This document shows, piece by piece, positions 32,440 through 63,148 of a DNA stretch of 63,578 nt. Position 1 is the first letter of the stretch. Every line of letters starts with the position of its first letter. The stretch is from the IMG/VR virus record IMGVR_UViG_3300030497_000009; one strand, written 5' to 3'. Under the pieces are notes generated by a model. It worked only from the letters and a program-made list of their open reading frames with translations, did no database searches and was not told the origin of the DNA. Source of the stretch: a virus. A program made the translations under genes and the position numbers.

Positions 32440-32472
32440 GGAGTAAATTATCCCTACGAAGACTTATATTAG
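32440..32472 (+). promoter_or_regulatory. Phage-specific promoter motif
   Basis: GGAGTA-N21-TATTAG upstream of the RNR. Confidence 0.65.
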
Positions 32473-38580: not shown

Positions 38581-38601
38581 CATACAATCAGGAGGTATTT
38601 T

Positions 38602-40758
38602 ATGAATGTTATCGAAGCGAACTCTTGTTGGGATGCCTACCTTAAAACGCTGAAAGCGTTGTTAGACTCCAAACATCTTGATCTTCGCAACTTGTTTCTC
38701 CAAGTAAATAACACCGATGACAACTATATAACATCGTTACCCCATGCCCCAGACAACCTTCCTTGGTTCCTGCGTGTGAACTCCGATGTTGTAGAAGGTG
38801 AACTTGGTTTAGGAGCTGGGCTGGACGTCCGATACGACCAGAAACGTTTGGGGAGAGTTAAAGGACACGGTTCCTATGATTGGGGCTACCGCGATGAAAC
38901 CGGAAGACCAACCCAAGCTCTTTTAAATCTTATTATGGAAGATGACGAAATATTCCCAAATGTTGGGCGTGTTGGTGGTAATGGCCAGCTTCATTACGTT
39001 AAAGACCTTCTCATGAAGGATCCGACTTCAGATAAAGGCGTTGTATCATTTTGGAACTGGAAACGAGACTTGCTTGAATATACGAAAAGAAAGTATCTGT
39101 CACCAGAGATAGCAGGTGAGGAAGGCTGGTCTGATGCTCAGCACCAGCGTGTACCCTGCCCTGTCTCTTGGCATTTCACCGTCTCAAAAGAGGGCGTTAA
39201 TAACAACGTTTATTCGCGTTCGATGGTTTGGGATGACCATATTCACGATGACATGTTTCGATTTATCGAGCCTTGTAAATGGATAGGTGGCCACCTTCGT
39301 AGGAAGTCTGGTATCTTTACGCTAACAACCAACCGGCTGTGGGTTAAGAACTTTGAAGGTGATGTACGTGAACGGCTGACTGATTTATACGACTTCTGGA
39401 GCGGTCAACCACCTATCAGTAGTTATTATGACCCAATCGACTTCCCTTTATACGAAAAAGTTGAAGATTTTGAAAGAGACTGGAAACTAAAAGAGCTAGC
39501 GGAACAGGATTACCGGCTTGGAGCTTTTGAAGAGGGTGACAAGAAGCTTGACTTGATTAGCTCTGAATACTATAAGAACTGGGTGCGAGTGATTAAAGTA
39601 GCGGAAATGACGATATCCCATCATCATCTAGGACGTATGTTCAGACGTGGCATTCATAGCCGTGGAACGAAGAGAGCTATGGAGTATATAGATGAGTATA
39701 CGTTAATACGGGCTGTAAACGACGTACAGGGCATATACAGAGTTCAAACCGTGCAGTGGATAGTTAACTACTATTTACGTGCGAAACTCGATAGCGACGA
39801 ATATAAGACGTTTTTAGAGCTACTACCAGAAGAGCTACGAGAATTAACTCTTTTATCGTCTCTGCACCGCGTTAAAGAGGCAATAACAGAAGATGTAATA
39901 AAAGATATCCGTCCTGAATATCTTAAACTGAGCGAAGATTTCAGAAGCAAGGTTGTTCAAACAAAACTACCACCAACCAAAACGATAGGAGAAGATGAAA
40001 TGCGTAATCCGATTAATACTGATGTTAAATCCAAATTACTTGTAGTTGACCCATATGCTGGTGAGCGTGTGAACCGTAAATACCCTGCTTACATTGCTGA
40101 GTTGAAAAAGCGCGGTGAACTAGATATCTGTTATTTCCCTGTAGAGCCTTTCCACCGTAGAGAAAACAAACGACATGCTACCCAGCATGCCATGGAAGCC
40201 TGTGTAAAAGCATTCGTGCCTATCTCGTTAGAAACGAGACAAGAAATTCCAGCTTGGGCTATCGATGCGTTGTCACGTGATAAACGTAGTGAAGCGAGAA
40301 TCCAGATAGCTTCGATGGACGAGAAAAAGCAAAAGGTTTTATATCCATCGATGGCATCACCTGAAGAGCTTTTTAATTCGGTTGTACGTTGCTTTAACGC
40401 TGGTATTTACGTAGTTGTAAAGACTGCACCAATTATTCCACCTATTATGACTCCACACGATGTATTCCGAGTAGTTGACGCGGTACGAAGTATTGCTAGC
40501 AGTGTGGAAATCTGTTTCGCTTCGTTCGATGAGTCAGAGTATCCTGATTTAAAAGCGCGTGTGAAGAAAAGCGAGGTTGCTTTTGATGACATGTACGAGC
40601 TAGCTGAGGGAAGATACTTTGTTCGCCAATCATATCGACAAGAGTTCATTCGAAAGCTTATGCTGTTCACACAAGGGCAAAAGCTAAAACTGGAAGTTGT
40701 AAAAGAATGCTCTATCGAGGACGGAGAGGTTACAGGAGTGTTGCGCTTCGGGGAGTAA
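38602..40758 (+). CDS. Fusion of a divergent thymidylate-synthase fold and a degenerate SPL-like radical SAM domain
   Basis: N-terminus: QL..V..LL.KDPTS..V.SFWN..RD, PC(186) and RS(206). C-terminus: DPYAG.., ASMDE..LYP..ASP, GIYVVVKTAPIIP, with no CxxxCxxC. Confidence 0.65.
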   Translation: MNVIEANSCWDAYLKTLKALLDSKHLDLRNLFLQVNNTDDNYITSLPHAPDNLPWFLRVNSDVVEGELGLGAGLDVRYDQKRLGRVKGHGSYDWGYRDETGRPTQALLNLIMEDDEIFPNVGRVGGNGQLHYVKDLLMKDPTSDKGVVSFWNWKRDLLEYTKRKYLSPEIAGEEGWSDAQHQRVPCPVSWHFTVSKEGVNNNVYSRSMVWDDHIHDDMFRFIEPCKWIGGHLRRKSGIFTLTTNRLWVKNFEGDVRERLTDLYDFWSGQPPISSYYDPIDFPLYEKVEDFERDWKLKELAEQDYRLGAFEEGDKKLDLISSEYYKNWVRVIKVAEMTISHHHLGRMFRRGIHSRGTKRAMEYIDEYTLIRAVNDVQGIYRVQTVQWIVNYYLRAKLDSDEYKTFLELLPEELRELTLLSSLHRVKEAITEDVIKDIRPEYLKLSEDFRSKVVQTKLPPTKTIGEDEMRNPINTDVKSKLLVVDPYAGERVNRKYPAYIAELKKRGELDICYFPVEPFHRRENKRHATQHAMEACVKAFVPISLETRQEIPAWAIDALSRDKRSEARIQIASMDEKKQKVLYPSMASPEELFNSVVRCFNAGIYVVVKTAPIIPPIMTPHDVFRVVDAVRSIASSVEICFASFDESEYPDLKARVKKSEVAFDDMYELAEGRYFVRQSYRQEFIRKLMLFTQGQKLKLEVVKECSIEDGEVTGVLRFGE

Positions 40759-40808: not shown

Positions 40809-41480
40809 ATGAGTGAAGTAGAAGTGGTGCGCGAGTCGATTAAGATGGAACGTGTTGATATTATGGAAGCGATTGAAAGTGTAAAGGAACTGCCCACTGG
40901 TTTGAAGTTAGTAAACGTGCGAGGTACGAATGGCTCAGGTAAATCGACGATCCCGTTACAGATGCTGGCTAATGACCGCGAAGCGTACATGCTGACGTTA
41001 GAAGGTAAAGATGTTGCAACAGTTTTCCCTTCTTACGGATGGTTAGCTCTTGGTAAATACCGTAATGCTGCTGGGGGGCTTGATACAGTCCGTACAACCG
41101 ACGATATGAAGCGTATCTTGCAGTTGTGTAACCAACTACCGTTTAATATCCTAATGGAAGGTATCTTGGCTTCAACCGTATATAGTACGTACTCTGAGTT
41201 GTTACAGAAATACGAGAAAGTCAACCCTTTCCGTAAAGCTGGTGTAATGAGTATTGTTAACGATATGGACGTTGTTAAGGCTCGAATCATGAAGAGAAAT
41301 GGAGGGAAACAAATTAAATTTGAACAAGTAGAATCGAAATGGAGAACAGTTAAGAAAAACGTTCAGAAGTTTAAAGATGATGGGCTAGCTAGTTGGGAAA
41401 CGTCAAACCAAGAGATTGCGAAAGAAGAAACACTTGACTGGTTCTTTAAAGAGTTGGAAGTGAACATGAAAGATGCCTAA
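40809..41480 (+). CDS. P-loop kinase of the thymidine hypermodification type, paralog 1
   Basis: VNVRGTNGSGKST, LGKY....GG.D, LMEG, RI.KRNGGK. Confidence 0.8.
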   Translation: MSEVEVVRESIKMERVDIMEAIESVKELPTGLKLVNVRGTNGSGKSTIPLQMLANDREAYMLTLEGKDVATVFPSYGWLALGKYRNAAGGLDTVRTTDDMKRILQLCNQLPFNILMEGILASTVYSTYSELLQKYEKVNPFRKAGVMSIVNDMDVVKARIMKRNGGKQIKFEQVESKWRTVKKNVQKFKDDGLASWETSNQEIAKEETLDWFFKELEVNMKDA

Positions 41481-42471
41481 ATCTGAAAAGCTACTAGCAG
41501 TTGAAAGGGTTTATGGGTTACCTATTGAGAGCGTCCTTAAGGATTACGTTGAACAGGGTTTATACGCGTCGAAAATAACAGCTGAAATAAATGAAAAGCT
41601 TAGTGCTGTTGGAGAAAAAAGCGTAACCATAAGTTTCACAAGACGACAACTAAAGAACGCAGGTATCTCTGCTCCAAAGCCGGATCGAAGTAAAATATCA
41701 AAATTAGCTTCAAACACCCCAGAGGAACTTGAACGCAGAAGCAAAGCTATGAAAGAACGATGGCAACGCGATGATAGTCTGCGAAACAAAGTTAACAAAA
41801 GCCTAGAGGAACGCTGGGCAGACCCAGCTTATGTTGAGTTTATGTCGGTTATGAGTCAAAACCTCTGGAGTTCAGCTGAACACCGTGATAACATCGCTGA
41901 TAAATCGAGGGAACAGTGGAATAGTGGCCATGGTGAAGTGGTCATGGCCACTATTAGGGAGCTTTGGAAAGATGAAGAGCACCGTGAGAAAATGAAAGAC
42001 CTAACGATAGAACGCTGGAAGGATCCCCATTATCGTTCAAAGATGAAAGAGGTTATAAAATCCTGTTGGGCTGATCCTGAGTATCGTGAAAAGGTAATGT
42101 CCAACAGTGGGAGAAAAGATACTAAAATTGAGTTAGCTGTGAAAGACATACTTGAGTGTCTTAATATTGAATATGAGCATAACGCTTTTCTCTCTTTTGA
42201 TACCTTTTATTGCTTTCCTGATTTTAAGATAGCAAACAAAATAATTGAGTGCCAAGGTGATTTTTGGCATGCTAACCCAGAGATATACAAGAGCATCGAG
42301 GATCTTTCAGAAGTTCAACGAGTAAACGTTGAGCGTGACAAGCTAAAAAAGAAACACTATGAAGAGGGTGGATATGAAGTGTTGTACCTGTGGGAAACTG
42401 ATTTTAAGAAAAACTTAGTAGGTGTCAAAGAGAGTATTAAAAACTTTTTGGAGGTGAACATGGGTGGTTGA
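41473..42471 (+). CDS. Putative homing endonuclease: Trp-containing helical repeats plus Vsr/EDxHD-like nuclease
   Basis: About 7 repeats of type ERW.DP.YR.KM; C-terminal TKIE..PDF..IECQGDFWH..RD..K...GY.V..LWE. Confidence 0.75.
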   Translation: MPKSEKLLAVERVYGLPIESVLKDYVEQGLYASKITAEINEKLSAVGEKSVTISFTRRQLKNAGISAPKPDRSKISKLASNTPEELERRSKAMKERWQRDDSLRNKVNKSLEERWADPAYVEFMSVMSQNLWSSAEHRDNIADKSREQWNSGHGEVVMATIRELWKDEEHREKMKDLTIERWKDPHYRSKMKEVIKSCWADPEYREKVMSNSGRKDTKIELAVKDILECLNIEYEHNAFLSFDTFYCFPDFKIANKIIECQGDFWHANPEIYKSIEDLSEVQRVNVERDKLKKKHYEEGGYEVLYLWETDFKKNLVGVKESIKNFLEVNMGG

Positions 42472-43162
42472 AGTAGCTCGTAAACCGATTAAATTAACAA
42501 GATACGATATAAACGAGAAAATCAAAGAGCTAACCAAAACGGCTGTGTTACGTTTTAAAGAGAAGAATTTGAAGTGTGTGAACGTCCGTGGCTCCAACGG
42601 CTCTGGTAAGTCAACGATCCCTATTAAGATGCTTGCTGAAGATAAAGGAGCGTATATCCTGACTGACAGAGGTAAAGACGTAGCTACTGTACTGCCTAAC
42701 GTTGGATATGTACTCCTTGGTACATACCGAAATAAAACGGGGGGAGGTGATACGTCAACGTTTCAAGACAAGGAGTATACCAAAGAGATTCTTAGAAAGC
42801 TATGGGTAACACCTTTCCACGTTCTCTTTGAGTCTATGACTATCTCTGCTTCCTTTACGTTTTGGGCACAGGTGTTCAGCGAGTTTGCGCACGATTTAGC
42901 TTTTACCAACCGCCAGATAGGGGTAATGAGTATTATTATTCCTTTAGAGGTAAATGAGCAACGTATAAAGAAACGTAATGGTGGTAAAGATATTAACATG
43001 AAGTACGTGGCTGGTAAGCTACGAACTGTTACAAACAACGTAGAAAAGTTTACAGCTATCGGTGTTCAAAGCTGGGCTGTTGATAATACTAGTGTAAGTC
43101 TTGACGAGGTTTATGACTGGTTCCACGAGCAAGTAAACGAGAACATGGAGGGATTAGGATGA
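42464..43162 (+). CDS. P-loop kinase of the thymidine hypermodification type, paralog 2
   Basis: VNVRGSNGSGKST, LGTY....GGGD, RIKKRNGGK. Aligns with 40809 over its full length. Confidence 0.8.
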   Translation: MVEVARKPIKLTRYDINEKIKELTKTAVLRFKEKNLKCVNVRGSNGSGKSTIPIKMLAEDKGAYILTDRGKDVATVLPNVGYVLLGTYRNKTGGGDTSTFQDKEYTKEILRKLWVTPFHVLFESMTISASFTFWAQVFSEFAHDLAFTNRQIGVMSIIIPLEVNEQRIKKRNGGKDINMKYVAGKLRTVTNNVEKFTAIGVQSWAVDNTSVSLDEVYDWFHEQVNENMEGLG

Positions 43163-44295
43163 GTTTAGCAGAGTCGAATAACAACCCGTTTGTAAATTAT
43201 GGTGAAGTACCAGACCACGAGTTTTTACTATCTATGGAAAGAAAGGTACGTCCTCACTGGGAACCTCAGTATATTAATCTACCTGACGAAACAGTGAAGC
43301 TACGAGTTGACCCAGCAACTGGAAAGCCACTGTGGGAAATGTATTTTGAGAATATGGTTGAACGTCAGAATATCTGGTATAAGCGAGTAGTGCTTGGCCA
43401 GTCAGCCCCGTGGACAACCGATCCTGTCATGGGTCAGTTCCATTTTACGAATGTTGATAGAAAGTTAGACCGCGTAACGCTCTATTATATTGACAACGTA
43501 CTTCCTAACCTTAAAGACAACGATGAGTCTCGTAAATATCTATTATTGAACACGTTCATTTACCGTTTGTTCTGTCGTATTGAGACTTGGGATGTTATCG
43601 GTTATCTTCATCCTGAAACGTTCGAAAGTGACTGGGATAGAGCTAAGACCAACCTCCGTGCGCGTCGTGAGTCAGGTGAGCCGGTCTTTACATCGGCTTA
43701 CTACGTTAATGACCTAAAGGTTGCGAACGATGACCCAGCGACTAACAAGAATAAAACAGAGAACGCGATTAAACTTATCCAGTGGATTAAAGACAACCTT
43801 GAAGAGCTTTCTGCTTTCGTATTCAACCCTGCGAACAATATGGAATCGGTTGTGGAGTATCTAACACGTATTCCTGGCATTGGCTTATTCAACTCTTATG
43901 AAGCTTGCTTAGACTTGGGGATGGTAACAGAGTTCACTGGTATCCCATTCGTTGAGTGGACAGCAGACTATTTCACTAATGTCGGTCCGGGATGTAAGCG
44001 CGGTATTGATTACGTATTCGAAGACAAAGGAAACATGAGCTACCTTGACATTGTGTACTTCGTTACGAGTGTGTATGAACACGAGTTCAAGCGATTAGGC
44101 TTAAAGTACCTCTTCCAAGAAGGTACGACTGAACTGGATTTACGTTGCTGTGAAGGCTGGTTCTGTGAGTCTAGTAAATACTTTAACTATTGGACTACTG
44201 AGAACGGGTATGACTTCGCTAAAGGTAAACGTCCGAAAAAGAAAATGAAGCTCCAAACCGACGATGTTAACTGGTTGAAGCCAAGAAATAAGTAA
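43159..44295 (+). CDS. 5-hmdU DNA kinase (aGPT-Pplase1 family)
   Basis: ERQNIWYKR..G..APWTTDP....HFTNVDR.LDR, F..AY, G.G.F.SYE...DL, NVGPGCKRG and CE..KY signature. Confidence 0.85.
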   Translation: MSLAESNNNPFVNYGEVPDHEFLLSMERKVRPHWEPQYINLPDETVKLRVDPATGKPLWEMYFENMVERQNIWYKRVVLGQSAPWTTDPVMGQFHFTNVDRKLDRVTLYYIDNVLPNLKDNDESRKYLLLNTFIYRLFCRIETWDVIGYLHPETFESDWDRAKTNLRARRESGEPVFTSAYYVNDLKVANDDPATNKNKTENAIKLIQWIKDNLEELSAFVFNPANNMESVVEYLTRIPGIGLFNSYEACLDLGMVTEFTGIPFVEWTADYFTNVGPGCKRGIDYVFEDKGNMSYLDIVYFVTSVYEHEFKRLGLKYLFQEGTTELDLRCCEGWFCESSKYFNYWTTENGYDFAKGKRPKKKMKLQTDDVNWLKPRNK

Positions 44296-44623: not shown

Positions 44624-45796
44624 GTGATGTATACTTTTGCAAACGAAAACCCATCACAGCTTTGTATCGATGCCGCATTTACGGTACTTAGACATGGTAA
44701 AGAATTAGCACCTAGAGGAAAGAAAGTATTGGAGTTACATCCGGCTGCTGTCGAGTTTTTAAAGCCGACTAACCGCGTAACTTTCGTAAAAGGCAGAAAA
44801 ATCAACCCATTCTTCCAACTAGCTGAAAGCTTTTGGATTTTACTAGGTAGAGCCGACGTTGAGTGGCTTACAAGATATAACGAAAATATGAAATCTTTCT
44901 CTGATGATGGAGTTTACTTTAATGCTCCTTACGGTGAGAGAATGCGCGCTTGGGGATTACACCGCGCGTCTGGTGATGTCTTTAACCCAATTGACCAGCT
45001 TCACGATGCGTTCCTTAAGCTAGAAGCTGATCCTGATACGCGACAAGCCTTTGTAACGATTGGCGATCCTCGCTATGATAACGCTGACTATACGTTGGGC
45101 GGTGGAAAAGATATCGCTTGTAACCGTGAGATTTACTTTAAGATTCGTGATGGTAAACTAGACATTACGGTTTCGAATAGAAGCAACGATGTTTGGTGGG
45201 GTACTTGGGGTGCTAACTTGGCTCAGTTCTCTACGATTCAGGAGTATATGGCGTCTATGTTAGGCGTTGGTATTGGTAAATATACGCAGTTCACCGATTC
45301 TCTTCACATCTATACTGAAGATTATGGTTCTAAGATTACGGATGATGTTTTAGAAGCCTATGGAATCGAAGACTTTAGAAACGTTGCTGAAACGCCTGAA
45401 GTTGAACACTTCGAGTTCGAAAACGAACCGCGTATGGAAGTGCTTGGCTTTGAAGAGGGTGAAGCGCTTATTCGTAAGCTTGAATACCTTGTTGAGTCAC
45501 TTATCCACGTGAACGATAACATCGTAAATACAGAGATTGCGTATAATACGATGAACATTATTAAAGGTAGTCCTGATCCGTACTTCCGTATGACGCTTTA
45601 TGCTATGATGGCTTATCGTGCTCACAAGCTAGGTAACGCTGAAGTTATGGTAGAAGCTCTACGCCTAATGGCTGACGGGCAGTGGAAGCTCTCTTGCTTA
45701 TTCTTCCTTTATAATAAGTATAAAGGTATCGAAGAGTTTGAAGACTTATATAGCCACTATACAGACGCTCAAAAGGCGTATATCGAAGGTAAATAA
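44624..45796 (+). CDS. dUMP hydroxymethylase (thymidylate synthase family)
   Basis: NPFFQLAE.FW.L.GR, APYGER, DTRQA, DIACN, NRSNDVWWG..GAN, SLHIY. Adjacent to the 5-hmdU DNA kinase. Confidence 0.85.
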   Translation: MMYTFANENPSQLCIDAAFTVLRHGKELAPRGKKVLELHPAAVEFLKPTNRVTFVKGRKINPFFQLAESFWILLGRADVEWLTRYNENMKSFSDDGVYFNAPYGERMRAWGLHRASGDVFNPIDQLHDAFLKLEADPDTRQAFVTIGDPRYDNADYTLGGGKDIACNREIYFKIRDGKLDITVSNRSNDVWWGTWGANLAQFSTIQEYMASMLGVGIGKYTQFTDSLHIYTEDYGSKITDDVLEAYGIEDFRNVAETPEVEHFEFENEPRMEVLGFEEGEALIRKLEYLVESLIHVNDNIVNTEIAYNTMNIIKGSPDPYFRMTLYAMMAYRAHKLGNAEVMVEALRLMADGQWKLSCLFFLYNKYKGIEEFEDLYSHYTDAQKAYIEGK

Positions 45797-45850: not shown

Positions 45851-46288
45851 ATGGCTAAAACGAAACAAACGATTACAGGTGATTTGATTATTGGTGTGGA
45901 TTTCGACGGTAACATCACGACTGAACCGGATATGGGTAAAAAGTTGGTGTTACAACCGAATTGTAAAGATGTTCTGTTGAGTTGGTGTGAAAAGGGTTAT
46001 ACGCTCGTATTATGGACGTGCAGAACAGGTCCGAGTTTAAACGAAGCATTAAGCTTTCTAGTTGAGAACGACCTGTACCACATCTTTACGAGTATTAACG
46101 ACCAAGTTCCGTTGGTTGTGACAAAGTACCACCCACATGTAGCTCGTAAGTTAGGGGCTGACATTTACTTCGACGATAAGAACGCGATGACGACTGTGAA
46201 CTGGTTGGATTATGCGGCATTCGTTGAAGACAAAATTAAACTGGAAGGTTGGGTTATTGATGGAGCGACAACAGAAGGTGCATACTAA
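45851..46288 (+). CDS. HAD-superfamily phosphatase
   Basis: VDFDG, LWTCR, RK..ADIYFDDK. Confidence 0.8.
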   Translation: MAKTKQTITGDLIIGVDFDGNITTEPDMGKKLVLQPNCKDVLLSWCEKGYTLVLWTCRTGPSLNEALSFLVENDLYHIFTSINDQVPLVVTKYHPHVARKLGADIYFDDKNAMTTVNWLDYAAFVEDKIKLEGWVIDGATTEGAY

Positions 46289-46727
46289 TGAAGATTGGAT
46301 TAAGTTTAAGAAAGAGATTCACGACAAGCTACACGATATGCTTGATCCGCAGTTAGTCGCTGACATCACGGTTGACGAGCTTGTAGAGGTATATGCTAAG
46401 TTGCCTTACGTGCATCCTGAAATGGAGCTTAGAGAAGACAACCTTCTCATGACGACTGTATTTGTTTACCTTTCTGAAATTCAGTATAAGAAAGAAGGCA
46501 CGTATGGCAGAAGCTTCTGCAAGCGCGGAGAAATGGACATCTTCTTTAATATGGCTCGTAAGTTTGACCGATTAGAGAATATGATGTTGCACGATAAGAA
46601 AGACGAAGTTGGTGAAGGTAAGACGGACACTGTGGGTGACGAAGCGAACTATGGTATGCTTTGGATGACTTACATTCTTCGTGAGAAACCTGAACTATTT
46701 AAAAACTGGTTGAAAAATAATTTCTGA
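46260..46727 (+). CDS. DUF1599/Nmad1-like (MazG-like all-helical) nucleotide-modification-associated protein
   Basis: KK...YG.S...G.....ARKFDRL...DT.GD.ANY motif. Confidence 0.7.
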   Translation: MERQQKVHTNEDWIKFKKEIHDKLHDMLDPQLVADITVDELVEVYAKLPYVHPEMELREDNLLMTTVFVYLSEIQYKKEGTYGRSFCKRGEMDIFFNMARKFDRLENMMLHDKKDEVGEGKTDTVGDEANYGMLWMTYILREKPELFKNWLKNNF

Positions 46728-57850: not shown

Positions 57851-58648
57851 ATGAAAGATGGATTTTATACGATGAAAATGGTATTTGCTCAACCGGCTGT
57901 TGAAGTAGCTTCCCGCGTCGGTACGATAACAAGCCAGTTTGGCCAGCAAGAGAAGTTTAGAACGCACGTGCACCACGGTATCGATTACGCTTGCCCCACG
58001 GGTACAGAAATCCACGCGCCTGTTGATGGGATTGTGTCTGCTGTGAAAGATTATGGCGATGTAAACCTTGGTAAAGCCGTATTTGTTAAGATGGAGGATG
58101 GCCAGCAGTATGTTGTTGGTCACCTAAGCCAAACGAAAGTCGAGGTGGGTGAGCATATCGAAACGGGTGAGCTCCTAGCTCTCTCTGGTAACAGTGGACA
58201 CTCCACCGGTCCGCATCTACACTTTGGGGCGTTTAATAAAGATGGTGGCTCTATCGATCCTGGAAATGTACCGTGGTCAGCTTTCGAGAATAGTGATGTT
58301 GCTTCGAATACGACTGGTAACGTAGATTTGGGTGGACTTGACCCATCGAAAGGCATCGAGCAGATACCCGATGGTGGTTGGTTGGGGCATGCTGGTAAAT
58401 GGGTTGGTGAGCACGTACAAGGAGGAGCTAGCTGGATACTTGAGCCGGTTGGGCACGCTATCGGTGAAGCGTCGGTGGCTATACTTGTATCATTCCTCCA
58501 CGCTTTACCTTTTATACTGGTAACTGGTGGGTTTATAAGCTTTCTATTAACAATTATCTTTGCTCACCAAAAGCCTTACTTTTATGGGTTGGGTATGTGG
58601 GGAGCTAGTGCGATACTAAGGGGGATTTTCATTGAAACCGGAATCTAA
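57851..58648 (+). CDS. M23 peptidase with C-terminal transmembrane helices
   Basis: HHGIDY, GHLS, SGNSGHSTGPHLHF; hydrophobic C-terminus. Confidence 0.9.
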   Translation: MKDGFYTMKMVFAQPAVEVASRVGTITSQFGQQEKFRTHVHHGIDYACPTGTEIHAPVDGIVSAVKDYGDVNLGKAVFVKMEDGQQYVVGHLSQTKVEVGEHIETGELLALSGNSGHSTGPHLHFGAFNKDGGSIDPGNVPWSAFENSDVASNTTGNVDLGGLDPSKGIEQIPDGGWLGHAGKWVGEHVQGGASWILEPVGHAIGEASVAILVSFLHALPFILVTGGFISFLLTIIFAHQKPYFYGLGMWGASAILRGIFIETGI

Positions 58649-61256
58649 TGTCGAGCCGTTGGATTGGAGAATAGCTTTTGGGTTGGTGGAAGTAAAAGCC
58701 GACCCTATCTCCTGCTTTAAGATTATTCCTGATAAATCAATTACCAACTATTCCAACTATAAGTTCTTTAAAGATATGTCAGAGCTAGAAGGCATAAACA
58801 ACATACGTGAAAACGCGAAGAACGTTGGAAACGCGCTGACAGGCAAAGGGCTTAAGTTCGTGTACCAGCTCCAGAATAACTATATCTGGTACGAGGTGGT
58901 TATCCGTGGTGGTGAGATAAACTTTTATGTACTGTGTAGTAAGCCGAACGAAAACTTTGTAAAGGTAAAGCTGGAACAAACCTTCCCGAATGCCCCAATA
59001 GAACTGGTTGACGAAGCCGAAACGATGATGCCAGAGGAAAACACTTCCATCGCTGATTTAAAACTCCAAAGACATAACTTTTTCAGCCTACGAACAAACT
59101 ATCAAGAACAAACCCAGCCCATCGAAGACATTCTTGCCTGTGCAGAAGATGTCCAAGAAGGGGATATACTTAAGTTCTCTCTACGAGCTCAACCATACGA
59201 TAGGAATTACTGGTCTTATAAAGCTGAGGAGTGGGAGGCACAGGTAAAGAAAGGTAAAACACCGAAACGTATGCGAATAAACAAGCAGGGAATGATTAAT
59301 GGCGTATTTGGATTGAGTGACATCGCTTTCCATAAGCTAGGTGAACTATTCCGTGAGATTCACCATATTGCTTTTCGTAAAGAAGAGAAACGACAGATTA
59401 TCATTAGTCGTTCTGACTTCGATGCTCGTGAGATTGGAGAGATAACGAAGCAAACGAACTATAAGATGACTGCCCCTGTATTCCGTGCCGATATGAAAGT
59501 TGCCAGTCATAGCGAGTCCGAGAGCCGACGTGTGCTGAATATGAAGTCGTTAACGAATGCGTTTGTGGATGTGAAAGACTCGAATAATGGACTGGTACGA
59601 ACAACCATCTATGAGAAGCCAGAGAACGCGTTACAAGAAACGAAAACAGGTTTGCTTAACAAGATATTTAAACGAGAGAAAAAGCCTAAAAAAGAAAGCT
59701 CAGGGCTTAAGGAACACGCTTGGAAGAGTATCTTTAAAGAAGTTAATAACCACCGCGTTTCGCCCTTCTCAGCTTTCGATATCGATTTTAACATCCTATG
59801 TGATAAAGAGTTAGGTAAATTATCGATGCTACCAACATCGAAGCTCCAGAAGCGTTTGAACGATAAGATGGACGCGTTGACCAATACTGAAGCCCCAATC
59901 CCAGAAGAGTTCCAAAACGAAGTAGGGGTGTCGATTGGTACAGCCGAGCTAAAGGGTGAAAGCTACCCGATAACGATTCCAGTAAACAACCCCGATGAGT
60001 TTTACAAGCCGATTGTTTCCTCTGGTATTATGGGTGCTGGGAAGGATACGTTTGGTACAAACTACGTATACGAATGTGCGATGCAGGGTAATGGAGCTGT
60101 GGTGCTTGACGTAATCGATGAGGATGACCGAGGTATGACTGACTCATTACTAAAGGTGTTGCCTCCTGACCGTGTGGTGGTCTTAGACTTCTCCGATGAG
60201 GAATACGTTCCATACCTTGACTGGGCTGAAGCCGTAACGGAAGATACGAACAACCGTTTTAATAAAAGCAAATTCGCGAGTGAGTTGACGAAGTTCTTTG
60301 CTGCTGAGGAAGAAGCTGGTATTCAAACTGAAAGATATCTACGTGAAGTGGTAAAAGCGATGCGTGGTGAGTCAGTCCTTAAGATGGGCTTGCTAATGAC
60401 TTCACAGACCTTACGTGAAGAAACGATTAAGCGACTGCGTGACCAAGGCGACCTTGCCTGTGCGAGCTTTTGGGAAGCGTATGGAAATGAAGGAGAAGGT
60501 AGACAGAAGCAGATTGCCGCACCGATCCTAAACAGACTTCATAAGCTTAGTGGTGACGATGCGTTAAAGTACCTATTCGCTCAAAAACCTACTGGAAAGA
60601 TTGATTTTGATAAATGGTTAGGCGAAGGTAAAGTGATTCTTTGTAAAATGCCGAAAGACCTGTATACTTCGAACGGGATTAAGACGCTGGTACACTGGTT
60701 AACGGTAAAGGTTTGGTTAACCAAGCAAAGACAGTTCCGTGAGAAACGAATGACGGGTACAATCCTCGTACTCAACGAGTTGCACCAGCAGATGACACCA
60801 GGATTGCAACTCTCGTTGGAAGAGATTTTCCCTGAATCACGAAAATTTAAACTGGGTGTTGTTACTTTATTCCACGACCTGAAACAAATACCAAAAGACT
60901 TATTTGACATAATGGAAAGCTCTGGAGCGAACTTCGTTATCCTAAAGCAAGACGGTATGAAGGCTTGGAAACGCTTTGAGCACCGTATTAAAGAGAGCTA
61001 CGACCTCGACGAGTGTATGAGCATCGTTAACCACGAAGCTGTGATTGGATTTAAGATTAATGGAAAGGAACGGGTTATTCGAGTAAAGATGAACCACACA
61101 CCAGAGAATCGTGGAGCTAAAGTGTACGATAATAAATATTTGGTCAAAGAACACGCGAAAGCCTATTTCCAGAAGATAACCGATGTTGAAGCAGAGATAC
61201 AAGAAACGGAGTTATTACTGGTAAATGGATTCAAAAAAGACAAAAAGAAGAAATAA
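58632..61256 (+). CDS. VirD4/VirB4/HerA-FtsK-like ATPase
   Basis: GIMGAGKD Walker A, VVLD, PILNRL, LVLNELHQ Walker B variant, ESRKFKLG...HDLKQ. Confidence 0.75.
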   Translation: MKPESNVEPLDWRIAFGLVEVKADPISCFKIIPDKSITNYSNYKFFKDMSELEGINNIRENAKNVGNALTGKGLKFVYQLQNNYIWYEVVIRGGEINFYVLCSKPNENFVKVKLEQTFPNAPIELVDEAETMMPEENTSIADLKLQRHNFFSLRTNYQEQTQPIEDILACAEDVQEGDILKFSLRAQPYDRNYWSYKAEEWEAQVKKGKTPKRMRINKQGMINGVFGLSDIAFHKLGELFREIHHIAFRKEEKRQIIISRSDFDAREIGEITKQTNYKMTAPVFRADMKVASHSESESRRVLNMKSLTNAFVDVKDSNNGLVRTTIYEKPENALQETKTGLLNKIFKREKKPKKESSGLKEHAWKSIFKEVNNHRVSPFSAFDIDFNILCDKELGKLSMLPTSKLQKRLNDKMDALTNTEAPIPEEFQNEVGVSIGTAELKGESYPITIPVNNPDEFYKPIVSSGIMGAGKDTFGTNYVYECAMQGNGAVVLDVIDEDDRGMTDSLLKVLPPDRVVVLDFSDEEYVPYLDWAEAVTEDTNNRFNKSKFASELTKFFAAEEEAGIQTERYLREVVKAMRGESVLKMGLLMTSQTLREETIKRLRDQGDLACASFWEAYGNEGEGRQKQIAAPILNRLHKLSGDDALKYLFAQKPTGKIDFDKWLGEGKVILCKMPKDLYTSNGIKTLVHWLTVKVWLTKQRQFREKRMTGTILVLNELHQQMTPGLQLSLEEIFPESRKFKLGVVTLFHDLKQIPKDLFDIMESSGANFVILKQDGMKAWKRFEHRIKESYDLDECMSIVNHEAVIGFKINGKERVIRVKMNHTPENRGAKVYDNKYLVKEHAKAYFQKITDVEAEIQETELLLVNGFKKDKKKK

Positions 61257-62548: not shown

Positions 62549-63148
62549 TTGGCTATTAATTTGTCTAAAGGTGGTTCGATTGACCTAACGAAGAATAATC
62601 CTGGATTATCCAAAGTAACGCTTGGGTTATCTTGGGGAAAGGCTTCTTCCGGTGGTGGACTGCTTGGTGCTTTATTCGGTGGTGGTAATTCTGGCGGTGC
62701 TATTGACCTTGACTCAGCTATCTTAATGGTTGACGATGCAGGTAGAAAGTACGATTTGGTCTACTTTGGACACCGTAGAAGTCAAGGTGTTTATCACAAA
62801 GGTGATGACCGTACTGGTAATAATAAGTTTGGTGACTATGACAACGAAGAGATTGAAATTGACTTAAATAAAGTTCCGACGCATGTTACAGAGCTTAACA
62901 TTATCGCTCATATCTATAATGCTGGAAGTAAACACTTTGGTCAAGTTAAGGGCGCGTATGCTCGTGTGTTAGAAACTGACACTCGTAACGAGCTAGTACG
63001 ATACAACCTTGACGAGCAAGGTAAAGGCATTAAAGGCATGGTTGTTGGTAAGGTTTACCGATACCGTGGAGAGTGGAAATTTAAAGCTCTTGGCCAAGGT
63101 ACTTCTGAACATAACTTAAGCAATATCGTTCGTACTATTTTATCATAA
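62549..63148 (+). CDS. terD: TerD-family stress protein
   Basis: INLSKG..LTK, LGLSW, IDLD, H.GD.RTG, E.I.IDL, YR..GEWKFKALGQG. Confidence 0.9.
   Translation: MAINLSKGGSIDLTKNNPGLSKVTLGLSWGKASSGGGLLGALFGGGNSGGAIDLDSAILMVDDAGRKYDLVYFGHRRSQGVYHKGDDRTGNNKFGDYDNEEIEIDLNKVPTHVTELNIIAHIYNAGSKHFGQVKGAYARVLETDTRNELVRYNLDEQGKGIKGMVVGKVYRYRGEWKFKALGQGTSEHNLSNIVRTILS

Follow-up and report, generated by a model that had tools for sequence, protein, structure and literature searches.

The 718-aa protein encoded at positions 38602 to 40758 of the window (the whole stretch of DNA analysed, 63.6 kb of a genome of roughly 156 kb) consists of a thymidylate-synthase (TS) fold fused to a dead radical-SAM barrel. 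With a probability which we set at roughly 60%, judging from sequence comparisons and predicted structures, the ThyA-fold part would add an amino acid to phospho-5-hydroxymethyluracil (phospho-hmU) in DNA via a Cys-C6 adduct. This TS module is a candidate non-orthologous stand-in for the clade-2 aGPT-Pplase transferases (ADDT), and the best candidate for the enzyme which attaches the amino acid in the DNA of phage SP10.

The source of the window is an SP10-like phage (Herelleviridae, Spounavirinae), and the locus is of a known kind, that is, SP10-type thymidine hypermodification. The genes of dUMP hydroxymethylase, 5-HMUDK, aGPT-Pplase1 and the gp185 orthologue are found there in synteny (table 1). 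The fusion ORF is preceded by the Shine-Dalgarno sequence AGGAGGT at 38590-38596. As the preliminary description of this DNA had stated, a conventional dUMP hydroxymethylase is located downstream of the fusion gene. The distance is 3.9 kb, and the enzyme is of the Asn type.

Table 1. Coordinates of the fusion gene, its domains and motifs, and the neighboring genes in the window.
Feature	Position	Strand	Remarks
718-aa fusion protein	38602..40758	+	Orthologue of SP10 gp185 (50% identity) and YungSlug UPI11440 (61%)
TS module, residues 1-455: ThyA-fold core (about 1-270) and helical extension	38602..39966	+	Candidate amino-acid:DNA transferase
R183-x-P185-C186: catalytic Cys (ThyA C146) and family-invariant Arg (ThyA L143)	39148..39159	+	
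R206-S207 ... D217: ThyA R166/S167, D169 gone, Asp at the N177 specificity position	39217..39252	+	
W247-V-K249 in place of the H207-x-Y209 3'-OH binding pair	39340..39348	+	
Dead radical-SAM barrel, M6 gp53 family, residues 462-718	39985..40755	+	
Short loop, residues 484-514; about 26 residues including CxxxCxxC deleted	40051..40143	+	
5-hmdU DNA kinase, copy 1	40809..41480	+	PF18748, E 1.5e-27
Vsr-like endonuclease gene, between both kinases	41473..42471	+	
5-hmdU DNA kinase, copy 2	42464..43162	+	PF18748, E 1.4e-16
aGPT-Pplase clade 1 / HMUDK_hel, with its own Cys motif	43159..44295	+	PF18723, E 1.9e-51
Conventional dUMP hydroxymethylase, Asn177-type, mapped ThyA substrate residues all intact	44624..45796	+	

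Several other features of the window were recorded. In the near-identical locus L023, the two kinase genes are directly adjacent and the Vsr-like endonuclease gene is missing, so this gene, which looks homing-type, is probably mobile. A second, divergent P-loop kinase is placed beside unfused TS modules in two other loci (L006:11456-12004 and L032:11654-12391), and the kinase paralogues, both the pair of the window and these P-loop kinases, could widen the range of sequence contexts or account for the old report of pyrophosphate. A small conserved gene follows the hydroxymethylase (46212-46727), and its homologue in L006:11995-12966 is fused to a kinase. The motif GGRGTAAAYT occurs in seven copies against 0.58 expected, all on the + strand and either intergenic or at a gene end (positions 32440, 36178, 40752, 44567, 45804, 46734 and 47257); four of the seven lie within stable hairpins, and possible roles of the motif are those of a promoter element for a phage sigma factor or of a site of RNA processing. 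GATC and GGCC are both strongly depleted in the whole window (0.29 and 0.35 of expected, respectively). A TerD gene is located at 62549-63148, and an 874-aa ORF at 58632-61256 has no Pfam match.

Among about 50,000 phage records, full-length relatives of the fusion protein were found only in SP10, YungSlug, Goe26, SBSphiC and Nachito, and the TS module is 57% identical to that of SP10. The SP10 protein, gp185, was tabulated as "radical SAM" without an activity by Lee et al. 2018 (PMC5889632), in a listing which includes neither the TS fold nor the loss of the cluster loop. There is no discussion of the TS domain in the genomics paper on YungSlug, and we found no publication on the TS module or on the domain swap (Iyer et al. 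2013 lies outside this comparison). SP10 makes N-alpha-glutamylthymine (gluT), yet it has no clade-2 aG/PT-PPlase (PMC5889632, Table 3), and both pathway papers, of 2018 and 2022, give no clade-2 transferase for this phage (PMC5889632, PMC8989533). For the glutamate-attaching enzyme of SP10, TS-like Cys-C6 chemistry was proposed by Witmer in 1981, according to the account in PMC8989533.

The AlphaFold models of the two parts of the protein are confident, with pLDDT values of 88 (residues 1-455) and 90 (residues 462-718). The closest structure to the model of residues 1-455 is the CMP hydroxymethylase MilA (Z 27.8, rmsd 3.0, 300 residues aligned), with a match spanning the range 4-405 of the model and a Foldseek E value of 2.8e-10. 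Other chains of the ThyA family follow at Z 13.7-17.5 (ThyA at 15-17), and the next unrelated row is at 6.3. In the profile alignment to E. coli ThyA, hhalign gave 99% (E 1.4e-17). Both results support the TS fold that had been claimed for the N-terminal part. Profiles and folds were required for its recognition, as single-sequence Pfam and PDB searches with the 718-aa protein gave no match, and the ESM Atlas returned only generic TS clusters, at 0.83. There was no Pfam or custom-HMM match of the protein to the helical fold of ADDT (PF18724). A frameshift or an assembly chimera was ruled out by the presence of the same fusion in 12 independent homologues. The module is, by its fold, a member of the ThyA superfamily, but one without the mononucleotide-binding signature.

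In order to follow the active-site residues, 28 homologues of the TS module (19-72% identity) were aligned, with conventional TS as the comparison set. In the map to E. coli ThyA, C186 corresponds to C146, R206 to R166, S207 to S167, D217 to N177 and W247/K249 to H207/Y209. The D169 of ThyA is gone from the 718-aa protein (RSMV reads V there), D144/K145 stand at R126'/R127', the R21 loop is missing and R183 is found at L143; the phosphate arginine set (R21, R126', R127' and R166) together with D169 is not intact. The mapping bore out every residue named in the preliminary description, namely the Cys and the RS motif, the loss of the RSxD Asp, the Asp at Asn177 and the loss of H-x-Y. The equivalents of C146 and R166 are kept in all 28 modules, and the same applies to the Asp at 177 and to the Arg at 143, a position where all eight conventional phage TS homologues have Asp. 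The H207/Y209 pair, which in ThyA binds the free 3'-OH (PMC5175136), is lost in 28/28 modules and retained in 9/9 conventional TS. Seven residues are invariant across the 28 modules: D62, G73, W151, R183, C186, R206 and D217. Position 143, which guards the exocyclic methylene, is occupied by Leu in ThyA and by an acidic residue in hydroxymethylases (PMC13326640); an Arg there would suit a phosphate leaving group or the carboxylate of an amino acid. R21, R126' and D169 are also lost in the SP10-like members. The P0029 clade retains R21, R126' and the Asp of the D169 motif and may, for this reason, still bind nucleotide or folate; a search of the genome contigs gave no relative of this clade. 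A second copy of the pool hydroxymethylase was ruled out for the module, since the substrate residues are lost and an intact copy is located nearby.

To our knowledge, all characterised ThyA-fold enzymes act on mononucleotides. The discussion of PMC13326640 says the same, and this favors a module which works at the mononucleotide level, or which is a non-catalytic nucleotide- or DNA-binding partner, e.g., one that steers the dUMP/dTMP pools or acts as a scaffold for the kinases. In accordance with such a role, the fused barrel is itself dead and the net charge of the protein is not basic. However, the 3'-OH binders are lost in every module, two of the four phosphate arginines are lost in the SP10-like clade, and C186, R183, R206 and D217 make up four of the only seven invariants down to 19% identity. 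The mutual exclusion with ADDT, described below, would also be left unexplained, and we regard this possibility as very unlikely. The loss of the binders together with the invariance of the catalytic residues argues for a catalysis that has probably been kept on a changed substrate.

The nature of that substrate could also be sought in cytosine. The module would then modify C or phospho-hmC, either within DNA or at the nucleotide level, and produce a second modified base. An Asp at 177 is a known dCMP determinant, with N177D giving dCMP preference (PMC13326640; PMC5175136), it is invariant in the 28 modules, and the top structural match, MilA, is a cytosine enzyme. Moreover, one locus (L005) joins the module and the kinase with an Asp-type pool enzyme. 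On the contrary, Asn-type pool enzymes are the neighbors in the window, in SP10 and YungSlug, and in L006, L011, L013, L016, L018 and L030, and PMC5889632 and PMC8989533 report gluT alone for SP10 DNA. A weaker point in the same direction is the depletion of GGCC in the window (0.35 of expected) even though this site contains no T, as if C were unprotected. With a cytosine-directed module, SP10 would have no transferase and the swap with ADDT would be unexplained; such a module is considered unlikely.

The relation with ADDT was revealed by the proteins that match only the barrel. Their N-termini are ADDT domains in LysYB1 M3_0048 and in P0019, P0020, P0021 and P0022, calls which have Pfam E values of 9e-5 to 6e-3 and are under the family cut-off. 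These domains align with M6 gp51, keep the catalytic Cys and form two distinct ADDT lineages. In the three cases that were checked (LysYB1, P0020 and P0021), the ADDT fusions occupy the slot of the TS fusions, immediately upstream of the kinase and Pplase1 genes. The TS module, likewise, is accompanied by genes of a 5-hmU DNA kinase and a dUMP hydroxymethylase and stands in the slot of the transferase. Unannotated fusions of ADDT and dead radical-SAM domains are located at L003:8861-10780 (LysYB1, a cultured phage), L033:10001-11842 and L038:8001-10337, and in the LysYB1-type ADDT, the Glu at position -4 relative to the catalytic Cys is missing.

In the barrel tree, TS-fused and ADDT-fused proteins interleave. 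For instance, the SP10-type P0012 and the Nachito-type P0013 cluster with the ADDT-type P0021/P0022 (support 95/95), and monophyly of the TS-fused proteins is rejected (p-AU 0.00185). The N-terminal module has therefore been exchanged on more than one occasion. Searches of whole genomes, made as a loose first pass which a very divergent ADDT could escape, showed that the two types exclude one another. SP10, YungSlug, Nachito and a complete IMG/VR genome similar to that of Nachito have the TS module but gave no ADDT; LysYB1, M6, ViI and phiW-14 have ADDT but gave no TS module; and the plain-hmU phage SPO1 gave neither of them. Within the 63.6-kb window, ADDT was not found. Pplase1 is present in all the hypermodifying phages tested and not in SPO1.

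Two fates of the adduct had been put forward, the addition of a nucleophile and the reduction to T. The first is favored by the exchange of the module with a known amino-acid:DNA transferase and by the mutual exclusion of the two. In the second, the module would reduce phospho-hmU in DNA to thymine by hydride transfer to the exocyclic methylene, and aGPT-Pplase1 (SP10 gp186C) would be the glutamyl transferase. Chemically there are precedents, since T is formed via the same methylene when M6 gp51 is combined with borohydride (PMC8989533) and ThyA normally finishes with hydride transfer, and the Cys motif of aGPT-Pplase1 is like that of ADDT. However, M6, ViI and phiW-14 convert hmU to T (PMC8989533) without the module, and all of them carry aGPT-Pplase1; the clade-1 protein of M6, gp55, is dispensable for transfer (PMC8989533). 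It is with ADDT and not with aGPT-Pplase1 that the module swaps places, and the folate residue D169 is lost in the 718-aa protein. Reduction by the module thus appears quite unlikely. The idea of a Cys-C6 adduct formed at the level of the polymer, on the other hand, is supported. A conserved C-E-x-x-K-Y motif, which parallels the catalytic Cys of ADDT, was observed in the aGPT-Pplase1 of the window. Being common to all the hypermodifying phages tested, aGPT-Pplase1 is a candidate for the hmU-to-T step; with a Cys motif of its own, it could instead be the SP10 transferase.

The model of residues 462-718 matched radical-SAM barrels in Foldseek, i.e., SuiB (E 5.5e-7) and spore photoproduct lyase (E 1.4e-6). 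The proposed SPL-type fold is therefore retained, but not SPL as the closest family, as the nearest family by sequence is that of phage M6 gp53 (phrog_9252, E 5e-11, with tblastn matches on gp53), an isomerase which rearranges glycinyl-thymine in DNA (PMC8989533). In a similar way, the cluster loop has no Cys, as had been noticed, but it is deleted and not substituted: the PY-to-EPF spacing is 27-32 residues versus 55-57 in the relatives bearing CxxxCxxC. The deletion is found in all fused homologues, and only one Cys is present in the barrel domain of the SP10-type P0012. An active radical-SAM enzyme was ruled out, as there is no cluster motif. The dead domain may plausibly have a DNA-binding role.

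Unfused TS modules, with about 20-36% identity, exist in unrelated uncultured phages, so the radical-SAM domain is not required in cis. In 9 of the 11 informative loci, a gene of the 5-hmU-kinase family is placed within 0-2 genes of the unfused module (L005, L006, L007, L011, L013, L021, L030, L032 and L039), and the linkage of the homologues to hmU-kinase loci which had been anticipated is therefore observed. L012 and L008 had no hmU kinase near the module within the flanking DNA examined, and L010 was too short to be counted as informative. No ADDT was found within 10 kb of the unfused modules in these metagenomic loci. A radical-SAM gene is the neighbor in four cases, bearing CxxxCxxC in L010, L012 and L021 and truncated in L030. 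This arrangement mirrors the transferase-isomerase pair gp51 and gp53 of M6, and suggests a way in which the fusion arose. In L005:10001-13383, a TS module and a 5-hmU-kinase homologue occur together with a pool enzyme of the Asp177 (dCMP) type, and there is no Pplase1 gene within 10 kb; this locus is a candidate pathway of phospho-hmC hypermodification. DUF2284 genes follow the kinase in L011:13989-14753 and L032:13321-14100, and their products are possible tailoring enzymes. A 251-aa gene which follows the unfused module in L011 was suspected to encode a split dead barrel, for which hhalign gave no support.

For the transfer of an amino acid, the following pathway is proposed. The downstream dUMP hydroxymethylase would supply hmU to the new DNA, as in the known pathway, and the two adjacent kinases would phosphorylate it there, by analogy with the SP10 gp186 kinase, which phosphorylates hmU in DNA (PMC8989533). 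C186 would then attack C6 of a flipped 5-phosphomethyl-uracil, and the phosphate would leave, probably with the assistance of R183, to give an exocyclic C5 methylene; clade-2 transferases work via such an adduct and methylene (PMC8989533). D216/D217 may polarise O4, like Glu243 and the metal in PaMx11 gp46 (PMC11472151). The amine of the amino acid, which would be glutamate in SP10, would attack the methylene with release of C186. The fused barrel may be the relic of an isomerase of the M6-gp53 type, probably kept for DNA binding or scaffolding; since it is incapable of radical chemistry, the adduct is proposed to stay N-linked, as in the N-alpha-glutamylthymine of SP10. The remaining hmU would be converted to T by another gene, most likely that of aGPT-Pplase1.

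In a wider sense, and as a little better than an even bet, a ThyA-fold family may transfer amino acids to polymeric DNA; it would have arrived at Cys-C6 chemistry by convergence with the ADDT fold, to which it is unrelated, and would supply the missing glutamylthymine synthase of SP10. Its combination in uncultured phages with active radical-SAM genes or with an Asp-type (cytosine) pool enzyme would imply further hypermodifications of T and possibly of C. If this is true, the module would be the first ThyA-fold enzyme known to us to act on DNA and not on a free nucleotide. One named gene, SP10 gp185, and one residue, C186 in the protein of the window, would then be assigned to an enzyme sought since the mechanism of Witmer in 1981. 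Two folds would be swapped in one gene slot, which would be a marker for further DNA-hypermodifying phages, and a DNA-labelling tool might possibly be derived.

Compared with known systems, the closest is SP10 gp185 (YP_007003442), an orthologue with 50% identity and the same two domains, which also precedes the genes of the 5-hmU DNA kinase, aGPT-Pplase1 and dUMP hydroxymethylase; it differs in an acidic linker of roughly 180 aa and in a kinase-Pplase1 fusion, whereas the phage of the window has two separate kinases. With the ThyA superfamily (E. coli ThyA, T4 dCMP hydroxymethylase, MilA and phage dUMP hydroxymethylases), the module has in common the fold (Z 13.7-27.8), the catalytic Cys and R166/S167, and its Asp177 is as in the cytosine-specific members. 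The substrates of those enzymes are mononucleotides, and most of them use folate; the module is without H207/Y209, D169, R21 and R126' and has Arg at 143. Regarding the barrel, the fold of residues 462-718 is common with spore photoproduct lyase, and M6 gp53 is homologous (E 5e-11; 26% identity over residues 514-681) and encoded beside the same kinase gene, but the 718-aa protein has neither the CxxxCxxC loop nor the C-terminal Cys-rich tail. The clade-2 aGPT-Pplase/ADDT enzymes have a fold unrelated to the ThyA fold of the candidate module; nevertheless, they share with it the proposed reaction, the mechanism through Cys-C6 and the exocyclic methylene, and the position in the pathway, and the two are interchangeable in the gene slot.
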